50,676 bases of DNA, from positions 1 through 50,676 of the IMG/VR virus record IMGVR_UViG_3300025530_000406. One strand, written 5' to 3'. The DNA is from a virus. Its lineage: Duplodnaviria; Caudoviricetes. The notes below the pieces were generated by a model, which was given only the letters and a program-made list of their open reading frames with translations, made no database searches and had not been told where the DNA came from. Made by a program: the position numbers and the translations under genes. This document shows positions 25,028-50,676 of the stretch, piece after piece (position 1 is the stretch's first letter; every line of letters begins with the position of its first letter).

Positions 25028-25351
25028 ATGGAATCCGGACAACTCTTCACGTGGCAAGCTCTCTCCGCGATGGGGGGAGCTTCTTTGTTGACGTACCTGA
25101 TCGTGCAGTATACCAAGGGGCTTGTTGACTGCTTTGCAAAATGGCTGCCGACGGACCTGTACGCGGTCGTGATCGCGACGGCCATTCTGACGGCTGCGCA
25201 ACTCGCCATTGGCGCCGACGCGGGCGACTGGCGGGTGTATGCGCTGGCGTTGGCTAACGGCTTCTTGGTCGCGGCGGCGGCCGGCCAGATGCAGAACAAG
25301 GCGCTGAACCCGCCGGGGTCGGCGGGGAAAGGGGATGAGAACCATGGCTAA
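25028..25351 (+). CDS. Holin
   Basis: Three hydrophobic segments; directly before the endolysin. Confidence 0.75.
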   Translation: MESGQLFTWQALSAMGGASLLTYLIVQYTKGLVDCFAKWLPTDLYAVVIATAILTAAQLAIGADAGDWRVYALALANGFLVAAAAGQMQNKALNPPGSAGKGDENHG

Positions 25352-26240
25352 AGGCATCGATTGCGCGATTCCGCTGACCGCCAGTACGGCCAAAGCGATT
25401 GCCGCATCCGGCTACGCCTTCGCGGCGCGATACCTGGTGCCGGAACGGTATGCCTGGAAGCGGCTGACGAGGGGCGAGGCGGAGGCCATCACGGCCGCCG
25501 GGATGCAGATTGTCAGCGTGTTCGAGACGACCGCCAATCGGCCGGCGGGGGGCGGAGCTGCGGGGATCGTAGACGGCGCCGAAGCCCTCAAAGAGGCTAT
25601 CGCTATCGGACAACCTCTTGGCACGGCCATCTATTTTGCCGTGGACTACGACGCGCAGCCCAAGGACTACGACGCGATTGAGGCATACCTGCGCGCCGCG
25701 TCGTCCGCGATCCCCGGCTATCGGGTCGGCGTTTACGGCTCGTATGCCGTCATTGAGGAAATGGCCCGGCGCGGCGCCGCCAAGCATTTCTGGCAGACCT
25801 ACGCCTGGAGCCGGGGCAGGAAGTCGTCGCGCGCAAACATCTGGCAGCATCAAAACGGCGTCAGCTTGGCCGACGCGACGGTCGACTTGAACGAATCATA
25901 CGGCGGCGAAGGCTGGTGGAACACGAACCCGGCACCGGCGGCCGCACCGCAGACCAACGAAAAGGATACCATCAAGGTCGTCGTCAACGACAAGCTGGCC
26001 GGCTATGGTCGAGCGATTGACGGCCACGTCTATTTACCGTTGCGGCAGCTCGGGGAGGCGCTCGGCAAGGTGGTTCACTGGGACAATGAGTCCAAGCTGC
26101 CATACGTGGACGGCAAGGTCGTGGACGTGTTCGAGATCATCGATGGCACAACGTACGTCGGCGTACGGGCGGCTGCTGAGTTGCTGGGAGCGCGAGTGAG
26201 CTGGAACGGAGAGGTCAAAAAGGTGTTTATTTATCGCTAA
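25344..26240 (+). CDS. Endolysin (GH25-like, DUF1906 type) with C-terminal binding repeats
   Basis: KGIDC, ARYL, IYFAVDYD, GVYGS, WQTYAWS motifs; two repeats of (Y)LPLRQLGEALG..V.W. Confidence 0.85.
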   Translation: MAKGIDCAIPLTASTAKAIAASGYAFAARYLVPERYAWKRLTRGEAEAITAAGMQIVSVFETTANRPAGGGAAGIVDGAEALKEAIAIGQPLGTAIYFAVDYDAQPKDYDAIEAYLRAASSAIPGYRVGVYGSYAVIEEMARRGAAKHFWQTYAWSRGRKSSRANIWQHQNGVSLADATVDLNESYGGEGWWNTNPAPAAAPQTNEKDTIKVVVNDKLAGYGRAIDGHVYLPLRQLGEALGKVVHWDNESKLPYVDGKVVDVFEIIDGTTYVGVRAAAELLGARVSWNGEVKKVFIYR

Positions 26241-26432: not shown

Positions 26433-27089
26433 ATGTACCGAAGTGCCCAACCATTCGCCTATTGGTTTATAAAAAACAATTACGATACACCCAGAAATAC
26501 ATTCGACGGAAATATGAAATTGCAAAAGTTGCTATATTTCTCCCAATTAGTTCATCTCGCAAAATATGATGAGCCATTATTTGATGATACAATTTATGCG
26601 TTTAAACACGGGTCTGTAATTGAAACTGTTAGACAACCTTACAATTACGATTTCCAAAATTATGTAATCAGAGCGCTTTCTCAAAAAATTGACCTTACAA
26701 GCGAGCAACTTGACACTCTCCAAACTGTCGAGGAAATTTTTGGACAATTGTCTGCGTCAGAGCTATCTGATATCAATCATGAACATGTTTCGTGGCGTGA
26801 ATCATATGATAGATCGCTTAGTGGTGGATATTCGTGGAAAGAAAATGCTTATATCACGATAGATCAGTTGCGGAAAAATGAAGTTGACAGTGTTCTTGAA
26901 ATCATTAAAGCGTATGAAGCAGGAAGCGAATTTTCGGAATTCCTTGAAGTTAACGGACGCAAATTTTACTACAATCCAAACCAAGTAACAATTACCTATG
27001 ATTTAATTTCACTGCTTGAATCTTTTGACGGGCCAGATTCAGCATATACAATATATAAGGACGAAAGATCAGGAGTTTTGATTTATTAA
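26433..27089 (+). CDS. Panacea-domain antitoxin (DUF4065/SocA-like)
   Basis: MKLQKLLYF, AFKHGSV (cf. AWxxGPV), LSASELSDINH...W; AT-rich region. Confidence 0.85.
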   Translation: MYRSAQPFAYWFIKNNYDTPRNTFDGNMKLQKLLYFSQLVHLAKYDEPLFDDTIYAFKHGSVIETVRQPYNYDFQNYVIRALSQKIDLTSEQLDTLQTVEEIFGQLSASELSDINHEHVSWRESYDRSLSGGYSWKENAYITIDQLRKNEVDSVLEIIKAYEAGSEFSEFLEVNGRKFYYNPNQVTITYDLISLLESFDGPDSAYTIYKDERSGVLIY

Positions 27090-27517
27090 TGGAAATTATT
27101 CCTGGTCACGGTTTGTGGTTTAAAGGACGCTTTGCCAATGGGACTGTTTGTAATTATGAGCGCCCGTTCTTAGTAATTGAAACAACAGCCACCTTTATCA
27201 AAGCGTTAAATGTTTCATCGACTAAAGGGAAAGAGGCGAAGTTAGCTCGGCCATCGAATAAGCGTCTACGAATACACTTCCCTCCTTTCCCTGCACCGTC
27301 TTTTGTTAAGTTGGATGAATTATACATAATTGATATGTTCCCCGAACTTAATCACGCTATAAGGGACAGAAGAACATTAGATCCATCAGTTTTACGTGAA
27401 ATTATTCAATTTCAGATTGATTATGCACAAAAAAGGATAGTATCTGAAGTTAGGCTCGATATCACGGAATTACAACAATTGAATCCAAGCTTATTTAGAA
27501 CGAAAATCAAACCGTAA
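27089..27517 (+). CDS. Putative toxin, PemK/MazF-like fold
   Basis: ERPFLVI, VSS and SFVKLD pattern; translationally coupled to the antitoxin. Confidence 0.55.
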   Translation: MEIIPGHGLWFKGRFANGTVCNYERPFLVIETTATFIKALNVSSTKGKEAKLARPSNKRLRIHFPPFPAPSFVKLDELYIIDMFPELNHAIRDRRTLDPSVLREIIQFQIDYAQKRIVSEVRLDITELQQLNPSLFRTKIKP

Positions 27518-27524
27518 TAATAAA

Positions 27525-27555
27525 TGCAGTGTGAGTAATCTCACTGCTTTTTTTA
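27525..27555. terminator. Bidirectional terminator between the TA pair and the ligase
   Basis: GCAGTG(TG)AG-TAAT-CTCACTGC flanked by A- and T-runs. Confidence 0.65.
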
Positions 27556-27556
27556 T

Positions 27557-28408
27557 TTACACCACAAACCGCACAAACTCCGGTGCCCGCAACATCCCGG
27601 CCCGGGTCCAATTCCGGAACCGCACAACCGCCTCAATGCTCGGCTGCACATAAACGAAGTCCCGATCCTCACCGGTTATGATCGTCTTTGCAACGCCGTA
27701 AAACGCCTGCCTGTGTGCAGCCGGCACCGCAAGTTCAATGATTCCCACAGCGCGGCCGTTGTGTTGAGCCAGCCAGCCGAATTGATTTTTTCTGTACCCT
27801 GCGATCTGGACGGTGACGTATTTGTAATTGATGATCTTCAGCCAGTTAGGATCGCGTCGGCTGACATACGGACTGTCCTTCCGCTTTGCAACGATCCCCT
27901 CAAGTTCCTTGCCCAGGATCGCCTCAAATAGCGCTGTTCCCGCGCCGTCTACAGCCAGCGTACGGCTGTAGTACCGATTATCCTCCAAAACCTCGTTCAG
28001 CAGCGCCTTACGCTCCGTGAGCGGCCACGAGCGGACGTTCTCACCCTTGTACCGCATGATGTCGAATACAAAATAATGGACTGGCCGCTTTATCGATGCC
28101 TCCCGAATGGACAAGGGCTTTTTCAGCCGAAAACGCTCCATGATGCCCTCAAACTCGATTGCGCCCGTCTCGGGATCCATATAGGCCACCTCGCCGTCCA
28201 GAACAACGTCAGAGCCGTCCTCGATCGGCACGTTATGCAACTCCGGGTACTGGCGCGTGACCTCGTTACCGTGACGCGTGTAGAGCCGAACGACGCCGTT
28301 CTGCATGGACAGAATAAGACGATGGCCGTCGATTTTCGGTTCGAATATGTAACGGTCATCATCGAAAGGCTTTTCGCGTTTTTCAGCCAGCATTGGAGCA
28401 ATAAACAT
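27557..28408 (-). CDS. ATP-dependent DNA ligase (minimal LigD/LigB-like)
   Basis: EPKIDGHR adenylation motif; LDGEV, FDI, EGIVAK, WLKI, LRAPEF. Confidence 0.92.
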   Translation of the reverse strand: MFIAPMLAEKREKPFDDDRYIFEPKIDGHRLILSMQNGVVRLYTRHGNEVTRQYPELHNVPIEDGSDVVLDGEVAYMDPETGAIEFEGIMERFRLKKPLSIREASIKRPVHYFVFDIMRYKGENVRSWPLTERKALLNEVLEDNRYYSRTLAVDGAGTALFEAILGKELEGIVAKRKDSPYVSRRDPNWLKIINYKYVTVQIAGYRKNQFGWLAQHNGRAVGIIELAVPAAHRQAFYGVAKTIITGEDRDFVYVQPSIEAVVRFRNWTRAGMLRAPEFVRFVV

Positions 28409-28491
28409 GGGGAGTGTACACCGTCCGTATATCTAAAATTGATATACCGATTTTAGCATTCTGACCGCTTGTATTGTGACGGTAAATGTTT

Positions 28492-28521
28492 GCATAAGAG
28501 GGAAAGGGAGGTCGCATAATA
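28492..28521 (+). promoter_or_regulatory. SigG-type forespore promoter
   Basis: GCATA-18 nt-CATAATA upstream of the SASP gene. Confidence 0.7.
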
Positions 28522-28548
28522 AGGGGAGAAAATCTTGGAGGTGAGCCC

Positions 28549-28755
28549 ATGGCAGACAATCGCCAACTCGTCGTGCAACAAGCTCGGGCTGCATTGGAAA
28601 AAATGAAATTCGAAGTAGCTCAAGAACTCGGCATTACACTTCCGCAAGACGGGTACTACGGCAATATGACCACTCGCGACACCGGACGCATCGGGGGTAA
28701 TATCACTCGCCGGCTTGTGCAAATGGCCGAGCAACAGCTGGCTGGTCGGTTTTGA
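28549..28755 (+). CDS. Alpha/beta-type small acid-soluble spore protein
   Basis: ALEKMKFEVAQELG...TRDTGRIGGNITRRLVQMAEQQL. Confidence 0.93.
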   Translation: MADNRQLVVQQARAALEKMKFEVAQELGITLPQDGYYGNMTTRDTGRIGGNITRRLVQMAEQQLAGRF

Positions 28756-28774
28756 TCGATCTGCTTGGAATCCG

Positions 28775-28803
28775 TTGACAATTTGTTTTGCAGGATATAT
28801 ATT
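28775..28803 (+). promoter_or_regulatory. Sigma-A promoter driving the solitary CRISPR repeat
   Basis: TTGACA-17 nt-TATATT; predicted start near 28810; no ORF downstream. Confidence 0.75.
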
Positions 28804-28811
28804 TAAGGTAT

Positions 28812-28844
28812 GTCGCCCGCCATGAGCGAGGCGTGGATTAAAAC
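28812..28844 (+). CRISPR. Solitary type I-C-like CRISPR repeat (candidate Racr / crRNA mimic)
   Basis: GTCGCCCGCCATGAGCGAGGCGTGGATTAAAAC: 5' GTCGC, internal hairpin, 3' GCGTGGATT-AAA-N as in I-C repeats; no second repeat and no cas genes. Confidence 0.75.
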
Positions 28845-28860
28845 AACCTTGTTCCTAAAC

Positions 28861-28893
28861 GACATGGCCCCCGTAAGGGGGCTCTTGTCATTT
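28861..28893. terminator. Hairpin/terminator shared by the repeat RNA and the leftward cassette
   Basis: GCCCCC-GTAA-GGGGGC at 28867-28882, extendable by GACA/TGTC. Confidence 0.65.
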
Positions 28894-29569
28894 ATGCTGT
28901 AGTCTCGCCGGAAAGGATACGCTTTACCCGTTCTTCATGTCCTTCTAAGTTGAGAACATGAGGAAGTATAAGTCTATTGTATTCCTCCATAGTCACCGCT
29001 GTTATTGCGGGCCAGCTCGGAGGAAAGAGGTCTTTTCCTATGTCTTGCCACATGTTGTTAAACTCGAAATTTTCTCGACGCTTAAAGAACATGATGTCTA
29101 CGAAAGACAATTCCACAAAAGCGACCTGATATGTTCCGCCGTCCTTGACGGTGTAAACGGCGGACGTTAGTTGATTATGGTATTTGATGGCGCGAATGAG
29201 CTCTCCTGCCTGTTTGACTGAGCCGCGATTCTTGTCAAACTCTACCGTTGTGTAAAGGACGCCGTTATCAAAATAAACAGTTATAACAGTGTCCTCTACG
29301 TCTACGCGATCGATGGGCGCGACGAATGTTATGCGTCTTTCGGACTCATCGATCGTCATGCTAACTACATCCCAATCAGGGTCGCTCACTTCCTGCAAGA
29401 CCCACTCGTACCAGCTTTGCAATGCTCCATAATGACCAAGGACGAGTGCTTCTTTTACATATTTAGCGTCCGGGATGTTAGGTCCCGAAAATCCATCGAA
29501 GACTGCCAGCGCCCCGGTGTACACTTCATCAAAGGTTCCTTTTACAGAAGTTACTTTTTCGACTTTCAT
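28892..29569 (-). CDS. Hypothetical acidic protein (candidate anti-defence)
   Basis: 225-aa ORF with AAAGGAG RBS, downstream of the ribozyme; no recognisable family. Confidence 0.7.
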   Translation of the reverse strand: MKVEKVTSVKGTFDEVYTGALAVFDGFSGPNIPDAKYVKEALVLGHYGALQSWYEWVLQEVSDPDWDVVSMTIDESERRITFVAPIDRVDVEDTVITVYFDNGVLYTTVEFDKNRGSVKQAGELIRAIKYHNQLTSAVYTVKDGGTYQVAFVELSFVDIMFFKRRENFEFNNMWQDIGKDLFPPSWPAITAVTMEEYNRLILPHVLNLEGHEERVKRILSGETTA

Positions 29570-29635
29570 TTTTAATTTCTCCTTTCGCGCGGCCTCCCCG
29601 AAGGTGAGGTCTTATGCGGTTTTCAACTCGTGGCG

Positions 29636-29700
29636 GGTATCCCGCGACGCTCGGGTGGACGTTTCGGCCGGTTACCATCCGGCCATCATCAGGCGGGGGA
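29636..29700 (-). ncRNA. Type I hammerhead ribozyme
   Basis: Minus strand CCCGC-CUGAUGA-U-GGCCGG(AUGGUAA)CCGGCC-GAAACG...CGUC/GCGGG; all three stems pair; GUC cleavage site between 29646 and 29645. Confidence 0.85.
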
Positions 29701-29725
29701 GAGAGGGGCCGGAGCCCCTCCGCTC

Positions 29726-29890
29726 TCAGTACACAAGCTTAAAATCGTTGTAGTCGATGTCGTCGAAGCCGTGCTCTGCGATAAACGCTTGCTCGTCAAA
29801 TCCGATTACCTCCAACGCTTCATCCACCGTCAAGCTGCGGTTTGTGACCACCTCTCCGACCAGGATGTCCTCGTAGTAGATTTTTGCCAT
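29726..29890 (-). CDS. Small acidic protein, 54 aa (candidate Acr)
   Basis: MAKIYYEDILVGEVVTNRSLTVDEALEVIGFDEQAFIAEHGFDDIDYNDFKLVY; RBS AGGAGAGG; own promoter; not in the ORF track. Confidence 0.75.
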   Translation of the reverse strand: MAKIYYEDILVGEVVTNRSLTVDEALEVIGFDEQAFIAEHGFDDIDYNDFKLVY

Positions 29891-29942
29891 TTTCAACCTC
29901 TCCTTTGATTTAATTTTGTATGTCGTCCCCTGCTGTGATTTA

Positions 29943-29975
29943 ATAATAACATATAAATAATTATATGTAAATAGG
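29943..29975 (-). promoter_or_regulatory. Sigma-A promoter with palindromic operator (cassette C)
   Basis: TTTACA-17-TATTAT with TG extension; inverted repeat ACATATAA-ATAA-TTATATGT at 29949-29968. Confidence 0.7.
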
Positions 29976-29989
29976 GTAAGGCAAAAAAA

Positions 29990-30202
29990 TTAACGGACTC
30001 TTTTGTTTTTCGCGTACTCCTCCAGATCGGATCGGAGATAAAGGCGCGTTTTGCGCGCATCTCCGAATTCCACAAACGGGATGATTCGTCCCGTTTGGAC
30101 AGACTGGTTGAACCCGGAGACGGACTGGCCCGTGATCTTCCGGGCCTCGTCCTGCATAACCAGGTTTTCTTCGATCCATTTTTTAATCTCGTCTCTTTTC
30201 AC
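29990..30202 (-). CDS. Small HTH/excisionase-like DNA-binding protein (Aca-like position)
   Basis: LVMQDEARKITGQSVSGFNQSVQTGRIIP...LYLRSDLEEY; GTG start at 30202 after AGGAGGAG. Confidence 0.7.
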   Translation of the reverse strand: MKRDEIKKWIEENLVMQDEARKITGQSVSGFNQSVQTGRIIPFVEFGDARKTRLYLRSDLEEYAKNKRVR

Positions 30203-30869
30203 GTTTTTTCTCCTCCTCATACCGCTCCAGATAGGGAGCGTAACATTGTTCCTCAGCGCGTTTCCGCGCTTCGGCGGCCTGCTCAATCGTGGGGTATATA
30301 CCGAGATAAATACGTTTGCCGTTGACGGTGATGTTTGCGACGTATTTCACTCGCCCCTTTTTGTCCCGCTGAATTGATACCCCTTTGACTCCGGTCTTGT
30401 TGTTGATTTGGATTTTTTGCCGGAGCAGCGGGGCGAAAACGCCATCGATGGTGTGATGCTGCTCGTTGTGTTGTTTAAGAGACTTCGCAAAGTCTTTCAC
30501 GGCGCAGCCGCAGGATGTCGTATTACCGCTGACAAGATCGCGGGCTGGCACAGCTACGACATTGCCGCACTTACACTCACATACCCAAACAACGATCCCA
30601 TTCCGCAGGCCGTCTTGATGCCTCGCAGTCAGCCGGCCAAAGGTCTGATCGGTCAAGTCAGCTGCCTGTCTACCAAGTTCAAGCTTTTCTCGCGCCAGGC
30701 ACCCGCAGGATCGGGTGTGTCCAGATAGGAGGGCGTATATGTCAAACTCTCGCACCGTGCCACACTCGCAGCGACAAAGCGCGTATCGCTTGCCCTTCCG
30801 CGTTTCGGTCTCACGGATGACGACCAGGCGATCAAACCTCTGATCGGGATGGACTTGTTTACGTGCCAT
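30183..30869 (-). CDS. AP2-domain protein with two CxCxCG/SCGC repeats (homing-endonuclease related)
   Basis: FDRLVV...CRCECG...SCGC twice; C-terminal NKTGVKGV...YLGIY...AAEARKRAE AP2 domain; no HNH motif seen. Confidence 0.75.
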   Translation of the reverse strand: MARKQVHPDQRFDRLVVIRETETRKGKRYALCRCECGTVREFDIYALLSGHTRSCGCLAREKLELGRQAADLTDQTFGRLTARHQDGLRNGIVVWVCECKCGNVVAVPARDLVSGNTTSCGCAVKDFAKSLKQHNEQHHTIDGVFAPLLRQKIQINNKTGVKGVSIQRDKKGRVKYVANITVNGKRIYLGIYPTIEQAAEARKRAEEQCYAPYLERYEEEKKREKRRD

Positions 30870-31271: not shown

Positions 31272-31304
31272 ATAATAGCATGCAAATAATAATATGTAAA
31301 TAGG
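31272..31304 (-). promoter_or_regulatory. Sigma-A promoter (cassette B)
   Basis: TTTACA-17-TATTAT with TG extension; 20/21 nt identical to 29955-29975. Confidence 0.7.
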
Positions 31305-33646: not shown

Positions 33647-34090
33647 TCACTTATCAAGCATCTCCGCAGCCGCCTGCAGTATCTTCACAAGTTGCGTTTT
33701 CTGTTCGTCCGTTAGGGCATGACCCTTGTACGTAAGTTTGTGATTGGCCAATTCCTCAATAGGTATTTCTGAAAGCCCCTTCTCGTCATACGAGGATGGG
33801 CTTTCTTTTATTTTTGGCGTCCCATCATCCAACCGCATCGGCTCCAGCAATTCATCTTCGTCCCAATACCCGCAAACGACCATTAATTCGACCAACGACG
33901 TTGTATGCAAATATTTAGCCAGAGTCTTAATCGTGTCTGCCTCTGGCTTCTGAATACCGGCCTCAATCCGCGAAATGGTTGCCGACGAAATTCCAGATTT
34001 ATCTGCAAGTCTGCGCTGACTCTTAAATCCACTCGCAATTCGGTGATACTCGATAAACTTGCCGAAATCCATCTTTGACATTTTCGACAT
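33647..34090 (-). CDS. Prophage repressor (XRE HTH)
   Basis: SQRRLADKSGISSATISRIEAG...P; divergent from a Cro-like gene. Confidence 0.88.
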   Translation of the reverse strand: MSKMSKMDFGKFIEYHRIASGFKSQRRLADKSGISSATISRIEAGIQKPEADTIKTLAKYLHTTSLVELMVVCGYWDEDELLEPMRLDDGTPKIKESPSSYDEKGLSEIPIEELANHKLTYKGHALTDEQKTQLVKILQAAAEMLDK

Positions 34091-34136
34091 TCCTTCCCGA
34101 TAGATTGAATTATGTTTGAATTATAACAATAAGCAT

Positions 34137-34218
34137 TACGTCGACGCAATTTTTTGGTTCCATGTTATTGCGAATATGTATCGACGTGTTGTATATTGGT
34201 GATGCGAAGACGTATCAC
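34137..34218. promoter_or_regulatory. Operator array of the genetic switch (TRCG-N4-CGTA)
   Basis: TACGTCGACGCA 34137-34148, TGCGAATATGTA 34169-34180, TGCGAAGACGTA 34203-34214; promoter TTGCGA...TATATT. Confidence 0.7.
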
Positions 34219-34240
34219 TTTTTCGAAAGGAGGGATAAGC

Positions 34241-34498
34241 ATGAAATACACGGTCAGGCTCAAAACTGACGCACTATTGCAGGCAGCAGACGAAAAAAAT
34301 TTTACGGATACCGAGTTGGCCGCTGCCATCGGCGTTTCTACAACGCAGTTGTGGCGCGCGAAGCTGCCTGTTTCTCATCCGTATTACAATGCCCCAGGAT
34401 CTACATTTATCGCTGGTGTGCTGGCCGTGTTCGGCGGCCCATTTGACCGGTTCTTTTTTATACAGGAAGTGATACGAGGACGTAGCAAAACAGGGTAG
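34241..34498 (+). CDS. Cro-like HTH regulator
   Basis: DTELAAAIGVSTTQLWR...PG..FIAG; GGAGG RBS. Confidence 0.8.
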   Translation: MKYTVRLKTDALLQAADEKNFTDTELAAAIGVSTTQLWRAKLPVSHPYYNAPGSTFIAGVLAVFGGPFDRFFFIQEVIRGRSKTG

Positions 34499-49146: not shown

Positions 49147-50676
49147 ATGCAGGAAAAAATTAAATGTGCGATATATGCTAGGGACAGCACAGACCAACAA
49201 GGCGACACAATCGAAAACCAGATCAGTCAGGGCAAAGAATACATTTCACGCTTGGGCGATCAGTACGACGCGGAGGACGTAGCGATATTCATTGACCACG
49301 CGGTTTCCGGTTACTATACGAGCGTGTTTGAACGGCAAGCGATGAAAGATGCCGTAGCCGGCGCCAAACGTGGGGATTTTAAACTGATTCTTTTTAAAGA
49401 AGTCAGTCGCGTCGGGCGGGACAAGCAAGAAAACCCGGCGATTGTCGGGATTTTTGAGCAGTACGGGGTGCGTGTAATTGCGATCAATGACAACTACGAC
49501 AGCTTGAATAAAGATAACGTGACATTCGGCATCCTTTCCGTGTTGGCTGAACAGGAGAGTATAAAAATTTCCTCCCGCGTCAGTAGCGCAAAGAAACAGA
49601 AGGCGAGGCGGGGCCTTTGGAACACAGACGCGCCAATCGGCTATCGTTTGAACTCCGAAACCAAAAAGCTTGAAATCGATCCAGACAGCAAAGAGATCGT
49701 GGAGTCCATTTTTCACATGTATGTTCACCGCGGGATTGGATCGTTTCTTATCGCGCAACACTTGAACCGAAACGGAAAAAAGACACGGGATGGCAATCCG
49801 TTTAGTCGGGAGTCCGTCAAACGAATCCTCCGGAACCAGGCCTACATCGGGAATACGGTTTACGGCAAAAAGCGAAACGAACTCAGGCGTGAATATGATG
49901 ACTCAGGCAAAATGACCAAACGAAAAGTACAGGTAAAGATCGATCCGAAGGATTGGACGATTGTCGAAGGAACGCATGAGCCGATCATTGACAAAGAAAC
50001 GTTTTACGCTGCCCAAAGAATCTTGGCTGGCCGTGGACACCACAGGACGCCGCGAAGGGCATACCATCCCCTAACGGGTATTTTGTTTTGCGCAAAATGC
50101 GGACAAGGCATGGTCTGCCAAAAGCGAAGCTTTCAAAGCAAACAATACCGATACTATATTTGCAAGACGTATCACAAATACGGTCGCAATGCATGCCCTC
50201 AGGCGAATGTTAATGCTGACGAATTGGAAATGAAGGTGATTAGTGTCGTTCGCGGCCGCTTGTCTGCTTTGTCCACTTCAAATATCATCGCTTCGGCTGA
50301 TAGGAGCGTGGATTTATCGAGGCTGGAGAATGAACGGAAGACCAAACAAAAGCAGCGGGAGAAATTGCAAAAAGATCAAATCGATATTTTCGGCCAGCGT
50401 GATTTGTTCGACGATCAAACATATCAAGGCATGATGGTTTCGTTAAAAAAGCAGATTCAAACCATTGACGAGGAAATAGCCATTTTGGACGGACAAATAA
50501 AGGCGATCCGCGAAGAGTCAAGCCAGACAGCAAACGTAGTGAACATTATCGAGGACTTCCTATCTCTCGATGTGAATGATACCGAAAGGCTACGGACGAT
50601 TCTGCATGAATTGATCGAGAAGATCACGCTCGCGGACAATCATATCGACATTCGTTATCGTTATTCCATTATGTAG
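49147..50676 (+). CDS. Large serine recombinase (integrase)
   Basis: YARDST catalytic Ser, SRVGR, APIGY recombinase domain, CAKCG...YYIC...C zinc ribbon, coiled coil. Confidence 0.95.
   Translation: MQEKIKCAIYARDSTDQQGDTIENQISQGKEYISRLGDQYDAEDVAIFIDHAVSGYYTSVFERQAMKDAVAGAKRGDFKLILFKEVSRVGRDKQENPAIVGIFEQYGVRVIAINDNYDSLNKDNVTFGILSVLAEQESIKISSRVSSAKKQKARRGLWNTDAPIGYRLNSETKKLEIDPDSKEIVESIFHMYVHRGIGSFLIAQHLNRNGKKTRDGNPFSRESVKRILRNQAYIGNTVYGKKRNELRREYDDSGKMTKRKVQVKIDPKDWTIVEGTHEPIIDKETFYAAQRILAGRGHHRTPRRAYHPLTGILFCAKCGQGMVCQKRSFQSKQYRYYICKTYHKYGRNACPQANVNADELEMKVISVVRGRLSALSTSNIIASADRSVDLSRLENERKTKQKQREKLQKDQIDIFGQRDLFDDQTYQGMMVSLKKQIQTIDEEIAILDGQIKAIREESSQTANVVNIIEDFLSLDVNDTERLRTILHELIEKITLADNHIDIRYRYSIM

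Follow-up and report, generated by a model that had tools for sequence, protein, structure and literature searches.

A solitary, promoter-driven type I-C-like CRISPR repeat on a temperate phage as a candidate RNA anti-CRISPR

The IMG/VR provirus record IMGVR_UViG_3300025530_000406, a metagenomic sequence of 50,676 bp that we analyzed over its whole length (hereafter the window), carries at 28775-28896 a stand-alone element in which a promoter is followed by a single CRISPR repeat of type I-C appearance, a short tail and a terminator-like hairpin. Judging by its sequence, the element probably specifies a mimic of CRISPR RNA (crRNA) that acts as an RNA anti-CRISPR (Racr) against the type I-C system of the host, although we hold this reading with some reserve. 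The crRNA-mimic class is the best supported because a solitary, promoter-driven, I-C-like repeat sits on a temperate phage, recurs as a mobile module, has a probable host lineage rich in I-C systems and shows the end of an RNA-library contig 1 nt from its predicted Cas5d cut. An original prediction, made from the letters of the window, had proposed that the element is either an RNA anti-CRISPR or a phage guide RNA for type I-C; the class held up as the best-supported reading, and the suggestion of a target at a host cas promoter gained no support in the genomes and cas loci searched.

All parts of the element lie on the plus strand. The promoter, of the sigma-A type, occupies 28775-28803, with the -35 box TTGACA at 28775-28780, a 17-nt spacer and the -10 box TATATT at 28798-28803. 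A promoter scan confirmed the TTGACA-17-TATATT arrangement where it had been predicted, at 11 of 12 consensus matches, with the -10 box ending 8 nt upstream of the repeat. The scan is weak by itself, with three promoter-like sites observed in 1.8 kb versus 1.6 ± 1.4 in shuffled sequences. Transcription is predicted to start at about 28810-28811, which is 1-2 nt 5′ of the repeat.

The solitary I-C-like repeat (psi-R), 33 nt in length, was confirmed at 28812-28844. It has the hallmarks of type I-C, with 5′ GTCGC, a 7-bp hairpin and the 3′ end GCGTGGATTAAAAC. The hairpin, which carries one bulged A, spans 28814-28833 and is intact, as had been claimed; the handle-coding 3′ end of the repeat, TGGATTAAAAC, covers the 11 nt at 28834-28844. 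Cleavage by type I-C Cas5d leaves an 11-nt 5′ handle on the crRNA, and because of this rule we place the predicted Cas5d cut between 28833 and 28834, where it would leave an 11-nt 5′ handle. A figure legend in PMC10651486 names Cas5 as the processing enzyme for I-C crRNA. The 33-mer is single-copy in the window at up to three mismatches, with none expected. The statement that the phage holds neither a second repeat nor a cas gene was likewise borne out: no further repeat was found in the window at three mismatches or fewer and no direct-repeat family overlaps the element, so it does not amount to an array, which takes at least two repeats and a spacer; and there are no cas genes among the annotated neighbors and window-end proteins.

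Downstream of the repeat, the tail or pseudo-spacer (psi-S) runs from 28845 to 28866, measuring 22 nt to the core of the next hairpin and about 16 nt to its extended stem, and is unique within the window. The 3′ end of the element at 28866-28896 resembles an intrinsic terminator, in which a G+C-rich hairpin at 28866-28883 with seven pairs, six of them G-C, is followed by a T-rich stretch. Tail and hairpin agree with what had been described before. In both directions the hairpin was called terminator-like, and the convergent open reading frame ORF225 on the minus strand ends in it too; the hairpin might even represent a second repeat that has degenerated strongly. For the 84-nt RNA the folding energy is -33.1 kcal/mol (z = -3.56), and none of 200 shuffled sequences folded equally well. 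A weak hairpin between handle and tail in the single-sequence fold was discounted as structure because the natural variants at 28851 and 28853 break its pairing. An Rfam search with the element returned no relevant family, just two chance microRNA matches (E values of 0.55 and 0.87).

The likeness to a I-C repeat is more than chance mainly because the element is conserved as a module in other metagenomes. The conserved mobile module consists of repeat, tail and terminator (85 nt, 28812-28896), and the block was found in independent soil and mangrove metagenomes with unrelated flanks, in at least five variants with sharp module boundaries. Public sequencing runs contain the stretch, although those with small shares of it carry no information on habitat. 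A soil contig of 1,083 nt covers 28570-28897 with 11 differences and then joins 29579, so that ORF225 is absent and the upstream gene for a small acid-soluble spore protein (SASP) is kept together with the element. Three mangrove contigs cover only the stretch from 28812, 28826 or 28828 to 28893 or 28896, and their sequence on either side is dissimilar.

Scanning of metagenome contigs with an invariant 21-mer from the element gave six loci, two of which (L161 and L160) are true homologues. The promoter of L161 is TTGACG-17-TATTAT and that of L160 is TTGACA-17-TATTTT, each with 10 of 12 consensus matches, and both loci carry an extra short 5′ leader hairpin. In L161 the element follows a holin and amidase cassette, which is the same post-lysis slot as in the window. 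The most diverged homologue, L160, is identical to the window at 8 of 9 and 8 of 8 positions in the two repeat stems, at all 11 handle positions and at 12 of the first 14 tail positions (13 of 14 in L161). Identity falls to 1 of 5 in the repeat loop and 5 of 8 at tail positions 15-22; the terminator matches at 13 of 18 positions with its stem kept, a different loop and a longer T-run, and the 100-nt flanks agree at about 52%, no more than background. Across the homologues both the repeat and the terminator hairpins are retained and the repeat loop varies, and the variable tail sites among relatives are 28851, 28853, 28856, 28865 and 28866. One compensatory pair was seen among 28, and with three full sequences this is no real test of covariation. 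We conclude that constraint acts on the RNA, namely on the repeat hairpin, the handle, the first ~14 tail positions and the 3′ hairpin. That tail positions 1-14 are conserved speaks for a role of some kind that depends on their sequence.

The remaining 21-mer matches were set aside as non-homologous: L158 is a chance match, and L157, L159 and L162 form one unrelated group. In the latter three, found 3′ of ABC-transporter ATPase genes in soil contigs, a hairpin, a handle identical to that of the phage and AACC stand directly 5′ of a ribosome-binding site and an open reading frame (at about 10105 in L157, as oriented). This motif could be a chance product of searching a very large collection with a 21-mer, or an unrelated 5′ untranslated region (UTR) element.

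We examined the lineage in which the phage is likely to find its host through its large terminase, whose closest relatives are in prophages of Paenibacillus genomes (72, 71 and 69% identity) and in a Neobacillus genome (70%); among named phages, an Exiguobacterium phage and a Paenibacillus larvae phage were best at 58-60%. With G001 (L019), a Paenibacillus sp., as the closest relative, its family supplied the genomes that were sampled. Of 401 family genomes, 202 carried the I-C repeat pattern GTCGC-N14-GCGTGGATT.AAAC, in over 11,000 copies altogether, and Cas8c (PF09709) was present in 147 of 381 family genomes versus none of 14 control genomes, so that I-C systems are abundant in the probable host family.

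Alignment of the phage repeat to the arrays of the host family, another step proposed from the start, had a divided outcome. The phage repeat shares GTCGC...GCGTGGATT.AAAC with these arrays and has its hairpin in the same place; overall identity is limited, as given below, and the handle is mismatched. The host handle is TGGATTGAAA[C/T] in all 22 sampled arrays, and the phage handle agrees with it at 10 of 11 positions, with A in place of G at position 7 (A7), so the canonical handle is not what the phage carries. A7 is invariant in all relatives of the phage element. In hosts the variant occurs once each in 24 of the 401 genomes (L163-L186) as sporadic mutated repeats. We considered whether A7 marks a special regulatory repeat and rejected this, the host copies being sporadic mutated repeats inside arrays or at decaying array ends; the A7 repeat of L181 (G001) looks solitary. 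Position 7 of the handle tolerates change, because three validated host units of the CreR-like kind described below have T there.

Genomes with a single match to the I-C pattern were also considered as sources of solitary units. Six of the eight singleton loci proved to be tiny or degenerate arrays and were dismissed, and the other two (L098 and L101) hold a solitary repeat followed by a partial repeat in non-cas contexts. Several further solitary repeats were observed. In G337 (L098/L120), a repeat and a half-repeat lie between fabG-like and fabF-like genes with no cas gene nearby. In G372, a solitary I-C repeat, a partial repeat and a terminator (L119, ~10015, minus strand) lie between two gp19-like tail-tube genes of a contractile-tail cluster, again with no cas gene nearby. 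Viral contigs held additional solitary I-C-like repeats (L001:269-301, L003:9209-9241, L116/L117 and L118, one of them in an AT-rich contig), and the pair L116/L117 has two solitary copies at sites 3.7 kb apart, each 6 nt after a TATAAT-like box.

The host lineage also has small regulators built much like the phage element. Among the listed host cas8c loci, we examined 150 (L187-L336; 1.51 Mb in total) and found a CreR-like unit in 53; one further listed unit was an array artefact. These units consist of an isolated degenerate or truncated repeat, usually directly 3′ of a -10 box and usually without a stem-loop, then an AT-rich pseudo-spacer, most often of about 16 nt up to the hairpin, and then a hairpin terminator. 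Their targets, flanked by TTC or TTT as protospacer-adjacent motif (PAM), are 40-260 nt off and pair at 9-16 PAM-proximal positions, with mismatches typically at positions 6 and 12; examples with 15 paired positions each are L246:6040 (plus strand; G001), L216:1840 (minus) and L228:3421 (minus). The host units are regulators of the CreR/CreA type, described as degenerate mini-CRISPRs that include I-C cases (bioRxiv 10.1101/2023.03.10.532045).

RNA-library contigs overlap the element. A 789-nt metatranscriptome contig from the bioreactor campaign that also gave the source metagenomes covers 28833-29621 with no differences, spanning ORF225, the terminator hairpin, the tail and the handle, and ends at 28833. 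The contig end expected from known sequence variants is at about 28824-28826, not 28833, and the observed end, at a distance of 1 nt from where Cas5d is predicted to cut, hints weakly at processing. A second RNA run gave a 220-nt contig inside ORF225. The SASP and ligase genes upstream had no RNA-contig cover of the same identity, and the uncovered parts of this 1.4-kb stretch are not evidence of silence.

Searches for a target of the tail covered the 401 family genomes and the 150 cas loci and not the phage's own host. The handle plus 11 nt of tail, at up to two mismatches, had eight matches in 7 of the 401 genomes, all of them ordinary array spacers or chance matches. TTC plus 11 nt matched exactly 25 times in 21 of the 401 genomes, compared with 17 matches for a reversed control; none of the sites was promoter-like or near repeats and none extended further (11-15 of 22 identities). 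The sites were mostly in coding frames, with five in rRNA leaders of one genome and one non-cas intergenic pair. Because position 6 had to agree in the exact search, targets of the natural style beyond the 150 loci may have escaped it. In seed scans over 60 and then 150 cas loci, with positions 6, 12 and 18 left free, the best site had 9 paired positions, and shuffled tails reached 9 or more in 10 of 100 and 24 of 60 runs. This best site is one homologous antisense site inside cas2 in three loci (L245, L225 and L211), where TTC and the first 9-10 nt of the tail agree; it does not extend, and by the shuffled controls it was rejected as chance level.

Other sources gave no better candidate. None of the host pseudo-spacers resembled the phage tail, the best agreeing at 8 of 14 positions; such pseudo-spacers vary widely from one host lineage to another. 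Within the window, the tail had no match at up to 3 mismatches of 22, and one 12-mer matched with one mismatch inside the HNH gene at 30242. Exact words from handle and tail found nothing but chance matches in viral contigs, and the 21-mer found none there. The search for TTC plus tail that the original prediction called for gave no relevant match in family genomes or cas loci, and its suggestion of a target at a host cas promoter gained no support, the relaxed seeds doing no better than shuffled tails. The guide reading has no positive support from the target searches.

In the mechanism that we propose for the RNA anti-CRISPR, the strong sigma-A promoter would yield, both in the lysogen and at an early stage of infection, a transcript of about 85 nt. 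Host Cas5d would recognize the repeat hairpin and cut 3′ of it, and the resulting 3′ product would have an authentic-looking 11-nt 5′ handle, a pseudo-spacer of 16-22 nt and a 3′ hairpin. Together with Cas5, Cas8c and only a few Cas7 subunits, this product would form a Cascade that is shortened and non-productive. As a minimum it would work as a decoy (the Racr mode), with Cas proteins drawn off the crRNAs that target the phage; a decoy requires just such an intact repeat hairpin and strong promoter. The conserved tail suggests that the complex may also be steered to a partially matching site, as a guide would be (the mode of the viral crRNA-like RNAs known as Cracr).

Several observations weigh against an RNA anti-CRISPR. 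The I-C repeat is lacking in 199 of the 401 family genomes, and a cognate I-C system is known at the level of the lineage only. The element, searched as a 141-nt query, is absent from the five genomes with the closest terminases. The phage repeat is only 22-26 of 33 positions identical to the 22 sampled host arrays, and A7 might impair recognition by Cas5d or by Cas5-Cas8. No known anti-CRISPR (acr) gene was identified adjoining the element; its neighbor ORF225 is unannotated and absent from a soil relative. The RNA evidence consists of one assembled contig that does not show strand or true ends and could reflect DNA carry-over, and this contig also spans the convergent ORF225 and ends at 28833 rather than 28834.

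A guide-type viral crRNA-like RNA, or Cracr, would refine the RNA anti-CRISPR reading rather than replace it, and we regard it as a tentative alternative of lesser probability. The psi-S would pair at about 10-15 PAM-proximal positions with a host promoter, whether that of the cas operon, of a CreT-like toxin or of another defense gene, and a shortened Cascade would repress it without cutting by Cas3. In its layout, with a promoter first, then one psi-R followed by a psi-S about 16 nt long, and a terminator last, the element matches the CreR-like regulators of the host family, and tail positions 1-14 are conserved in diverged homologues while loops and flanks vary. Viral psi-S are reported to be short (17-21 nt in I-F), a form with a single psi-R and a terminator is known for V-A, and I-C candidates have been predicted, those mentioned being two-spacer arrays (bioRxiv 10.1101/2024.10.29.618823). 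Against this, neither the 401 genomes nor the 150 cas loci yielded a cognate, the best site of 9 paired positions being at chance; no host psi-S resembles the tail, which is richer in G+C than the AT-rich host psi-S; and the variable tail sites 7 and 9 fall inside the seed. Were the RNA a guide, the hypervariable tail positions 7, 9 and 12 would record retargeting between host strains, and the fixed handle A together with the short spacer might mark the complex to bind without recruiting Cas3. Taken whole, a single-repeat, terminator-capped I-C guide copied from a host CreR, through which a shortened Cascade silences a host promoter, is conceivable but doubtful.

Explanations outside this class fare worse. 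That the element is no CRISPR effector at all, being instead a decayed remnant of a phage array, a 3′ UTR or terminator region of its neighbors or an unrelated small RNA, seems improbable to us. Phage-borne I-C arrays do exist (L002 and L004) and could decay to one repeat, and no Rfam family matches the element. In a remnant, however, one would not expect a dedicated promoter, a hairpin and handle that are still intact, and boundaries that stay sharp in at least five variants with unrelated flanks. The terminator hairpin serves ORF225 as well, and read-through from the SASP gene is possible as no terminator lies between the two, but the L161 element follows an amidase gene instead of a SASP gene and ORF225 is missing from a relative that keeps the element. 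We consider it very unlikely that the RNA directs host Cascade(-Cas3) at other mobile elements or at the phage's own promoters. Its layout is crRNA-like and phage mini-arrays that target rival phages are known (introduction of PMC10651486), but the tail is without a match in the window at up to 3 mismatches of 22, viral contigs gave no relevant hit to exact words and a spacer of 16-22 nt is short for interference. The least credible product, which we can hardly entertain, is a small protein. The claim that the element holds no open reading frame was incorrect, since a 30-codon frame at 28810-28902 overlaps it and a longer frame is open in L161; this frame is nonetheless not conserved as coding, for its ribosome-binding spacing is not a proper one, the start codon is missing in L160, where the tail also has a 1-nt indel, and conservation follows the RNA stems and not the codons.

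The phage that carries the element is a temperate, siphovirus-like phage with terminase, portal and tail genes; we call it temperate because of a repressor at 33647-34090 and a serine recombinase (49147-50676) at the right end. The element lies in the interior rather than at an attachment end. Here as in L161 it sits in an accessory slot after the lysis genes. An endolysin gene at 25335-26240 precedes the accessory block, in which the order is a Panacea/SocA-domain protein, a phrog_13386 protein, an ATP-dependent DNA ligase (minus strand), SASP, the element and ORF225. The Panacea (SocA) domain protein and the adjacent phrog_13386 protein (26433-27517) look like a pair of the toxin-antitoxin type. 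The gene for the alpha/beta-type SASP is at 28549-28755 (Pfam E 3e-26), and a search of viral contigs for SASP found one locus, L005. The sequence GCATA-18-CATAATA at 28492-28521, 5′ of the SASP gene, resembles a forespore sigma-G/F promoter and may be one.

The unannotated, convergent ORF225 (28892-29569, minus strand) looks like a moron expressed in the lysogen. It belongs to no family and has no relatives in viral contigs or genome contigs; the Atlas gave no usable match, and its own model was poor. Beyond ORF225, towards the right end of the window, come HNH/AP2, the repressor/Cro-like pair (33647-34498), RecT, DnaB, a methylase and the large serine recombinase. The HNH/Gp111 genes are bracketed by a 33-nt AT-rich direct repeat, 88% identical between 29943-29975 and 31272-31304, which is possibly an operator or a promoter element. 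A blastn search with 27500-30000 gave no match to named phages.

If active, the element would be a stand-alone RNA inhibitor of type I-C in spore-forming soil Bacillota, where I-C is very common (~40-50% of sampled Paenibacillaceae genomes); one validated I-C Racr, from Bifidobacterium, is described in PMC10651486. Its layout copies that of host CreR-type regulators, which makes it a compact natural test case for decoy versus guide action, and I-C Cascade could perhaps be loaded with it as a minimal ~60-nt scaffold. The class is already known, so for the specialist the element is a useful example and neither a surprise nor a new principle. The original prediction overrated its novelty, as Racrs, including the validated RacrIC1, and Cracr are already in print (PMC10651486; bioRxiv 10.1101/2024.10.29.618823), and the element may already stand in the published supplementary lists of solitary repeat units (SRUs) or Cracr.

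By its structure, the element would belong to the known class of RNA anti-CRISPRs, either as a Racr or as a guide-type Cracr. It differs from a canonical I-C repeat, with which it shares the 33-nt length, 5′ GTCGC, the hairpin and 3′ GCGTGGATT.AAAC, in that the phage copy is single, has no spacers, carries the A7 handle and has stem and loop sequences not seen in the sampled arrays. Solitary repeat units on phages are often directly 3′ of a promoter, and 2,103 have been catalogued on viral sequences, IMG/VR3 included; such units act as Racrs, and RacrIC1 allowed infection to succeed again despite a I-C system (Camara-Wilpert et al., Nature 2023, PMC10651486). The element has the structural features of this group, being solitary without cas genes, resembling I-C in sequence and structure and having a predicted promoter no more than 250 bp upstream. 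It is likewise a repeat mimic on a (pro)phage, with neither cas genes nor an array, a promoter directly upstream and an intact hairpin, and its subtype is frequent among the systems of the likely host lineage. In a Bifidobacterium prophage, RacrIC1 is found 11 nt downstream of acrIC5 on a bicistronic RNA (PMC10651486), whereas the phage element has its own promoter and no recognizable acr neighbor, and has in addition a conserved short tail, a dedicated terminator and a fixed G-to-A change in the handle.

Cracr are described as viral crRNA-like RNAs with a short psi-S by which Cas proteins are directed to the promoters of cas or creT (Liu et al., bioRxiv 10.1101/2024.10.29.618823). What defines them is that 9 or more PAM-proximal nt of a host CreA/CreR spacer, or of a promoter site flanked by a PAM, are matched by the psi-S. 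The element resembles them in combining a psi-R, a short psi-S (16-22 nt) and a rho-independent terminator on a phage outside CRISPR-cas loci; the short spacer implies a smaller effector complex, and the element mirrors host CreR/CreA. It differs in that no such match to a host CreA/CreR spacer or promoter site was found for it in the 401 family genomes and 150 cas loci. With the host CreR/CreA units the element has in common the order of parts, a similar length of the pseudo-spacer and the terminator-hairpin end. The host units, in contrast, sit inside cas loci and the phage element outside them; the phage keeps a full repeat hairpin of -9.8 kcal/mol versus a host median of about -3.9 for the 5′ part; and the host psi-S is AT-rich with a verified target nearby, while the phage tail is richer in G+C. 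The element is a clean, conserved, stand-alone example in Bacillota that mirrors the CreR regulators of its likely host family.

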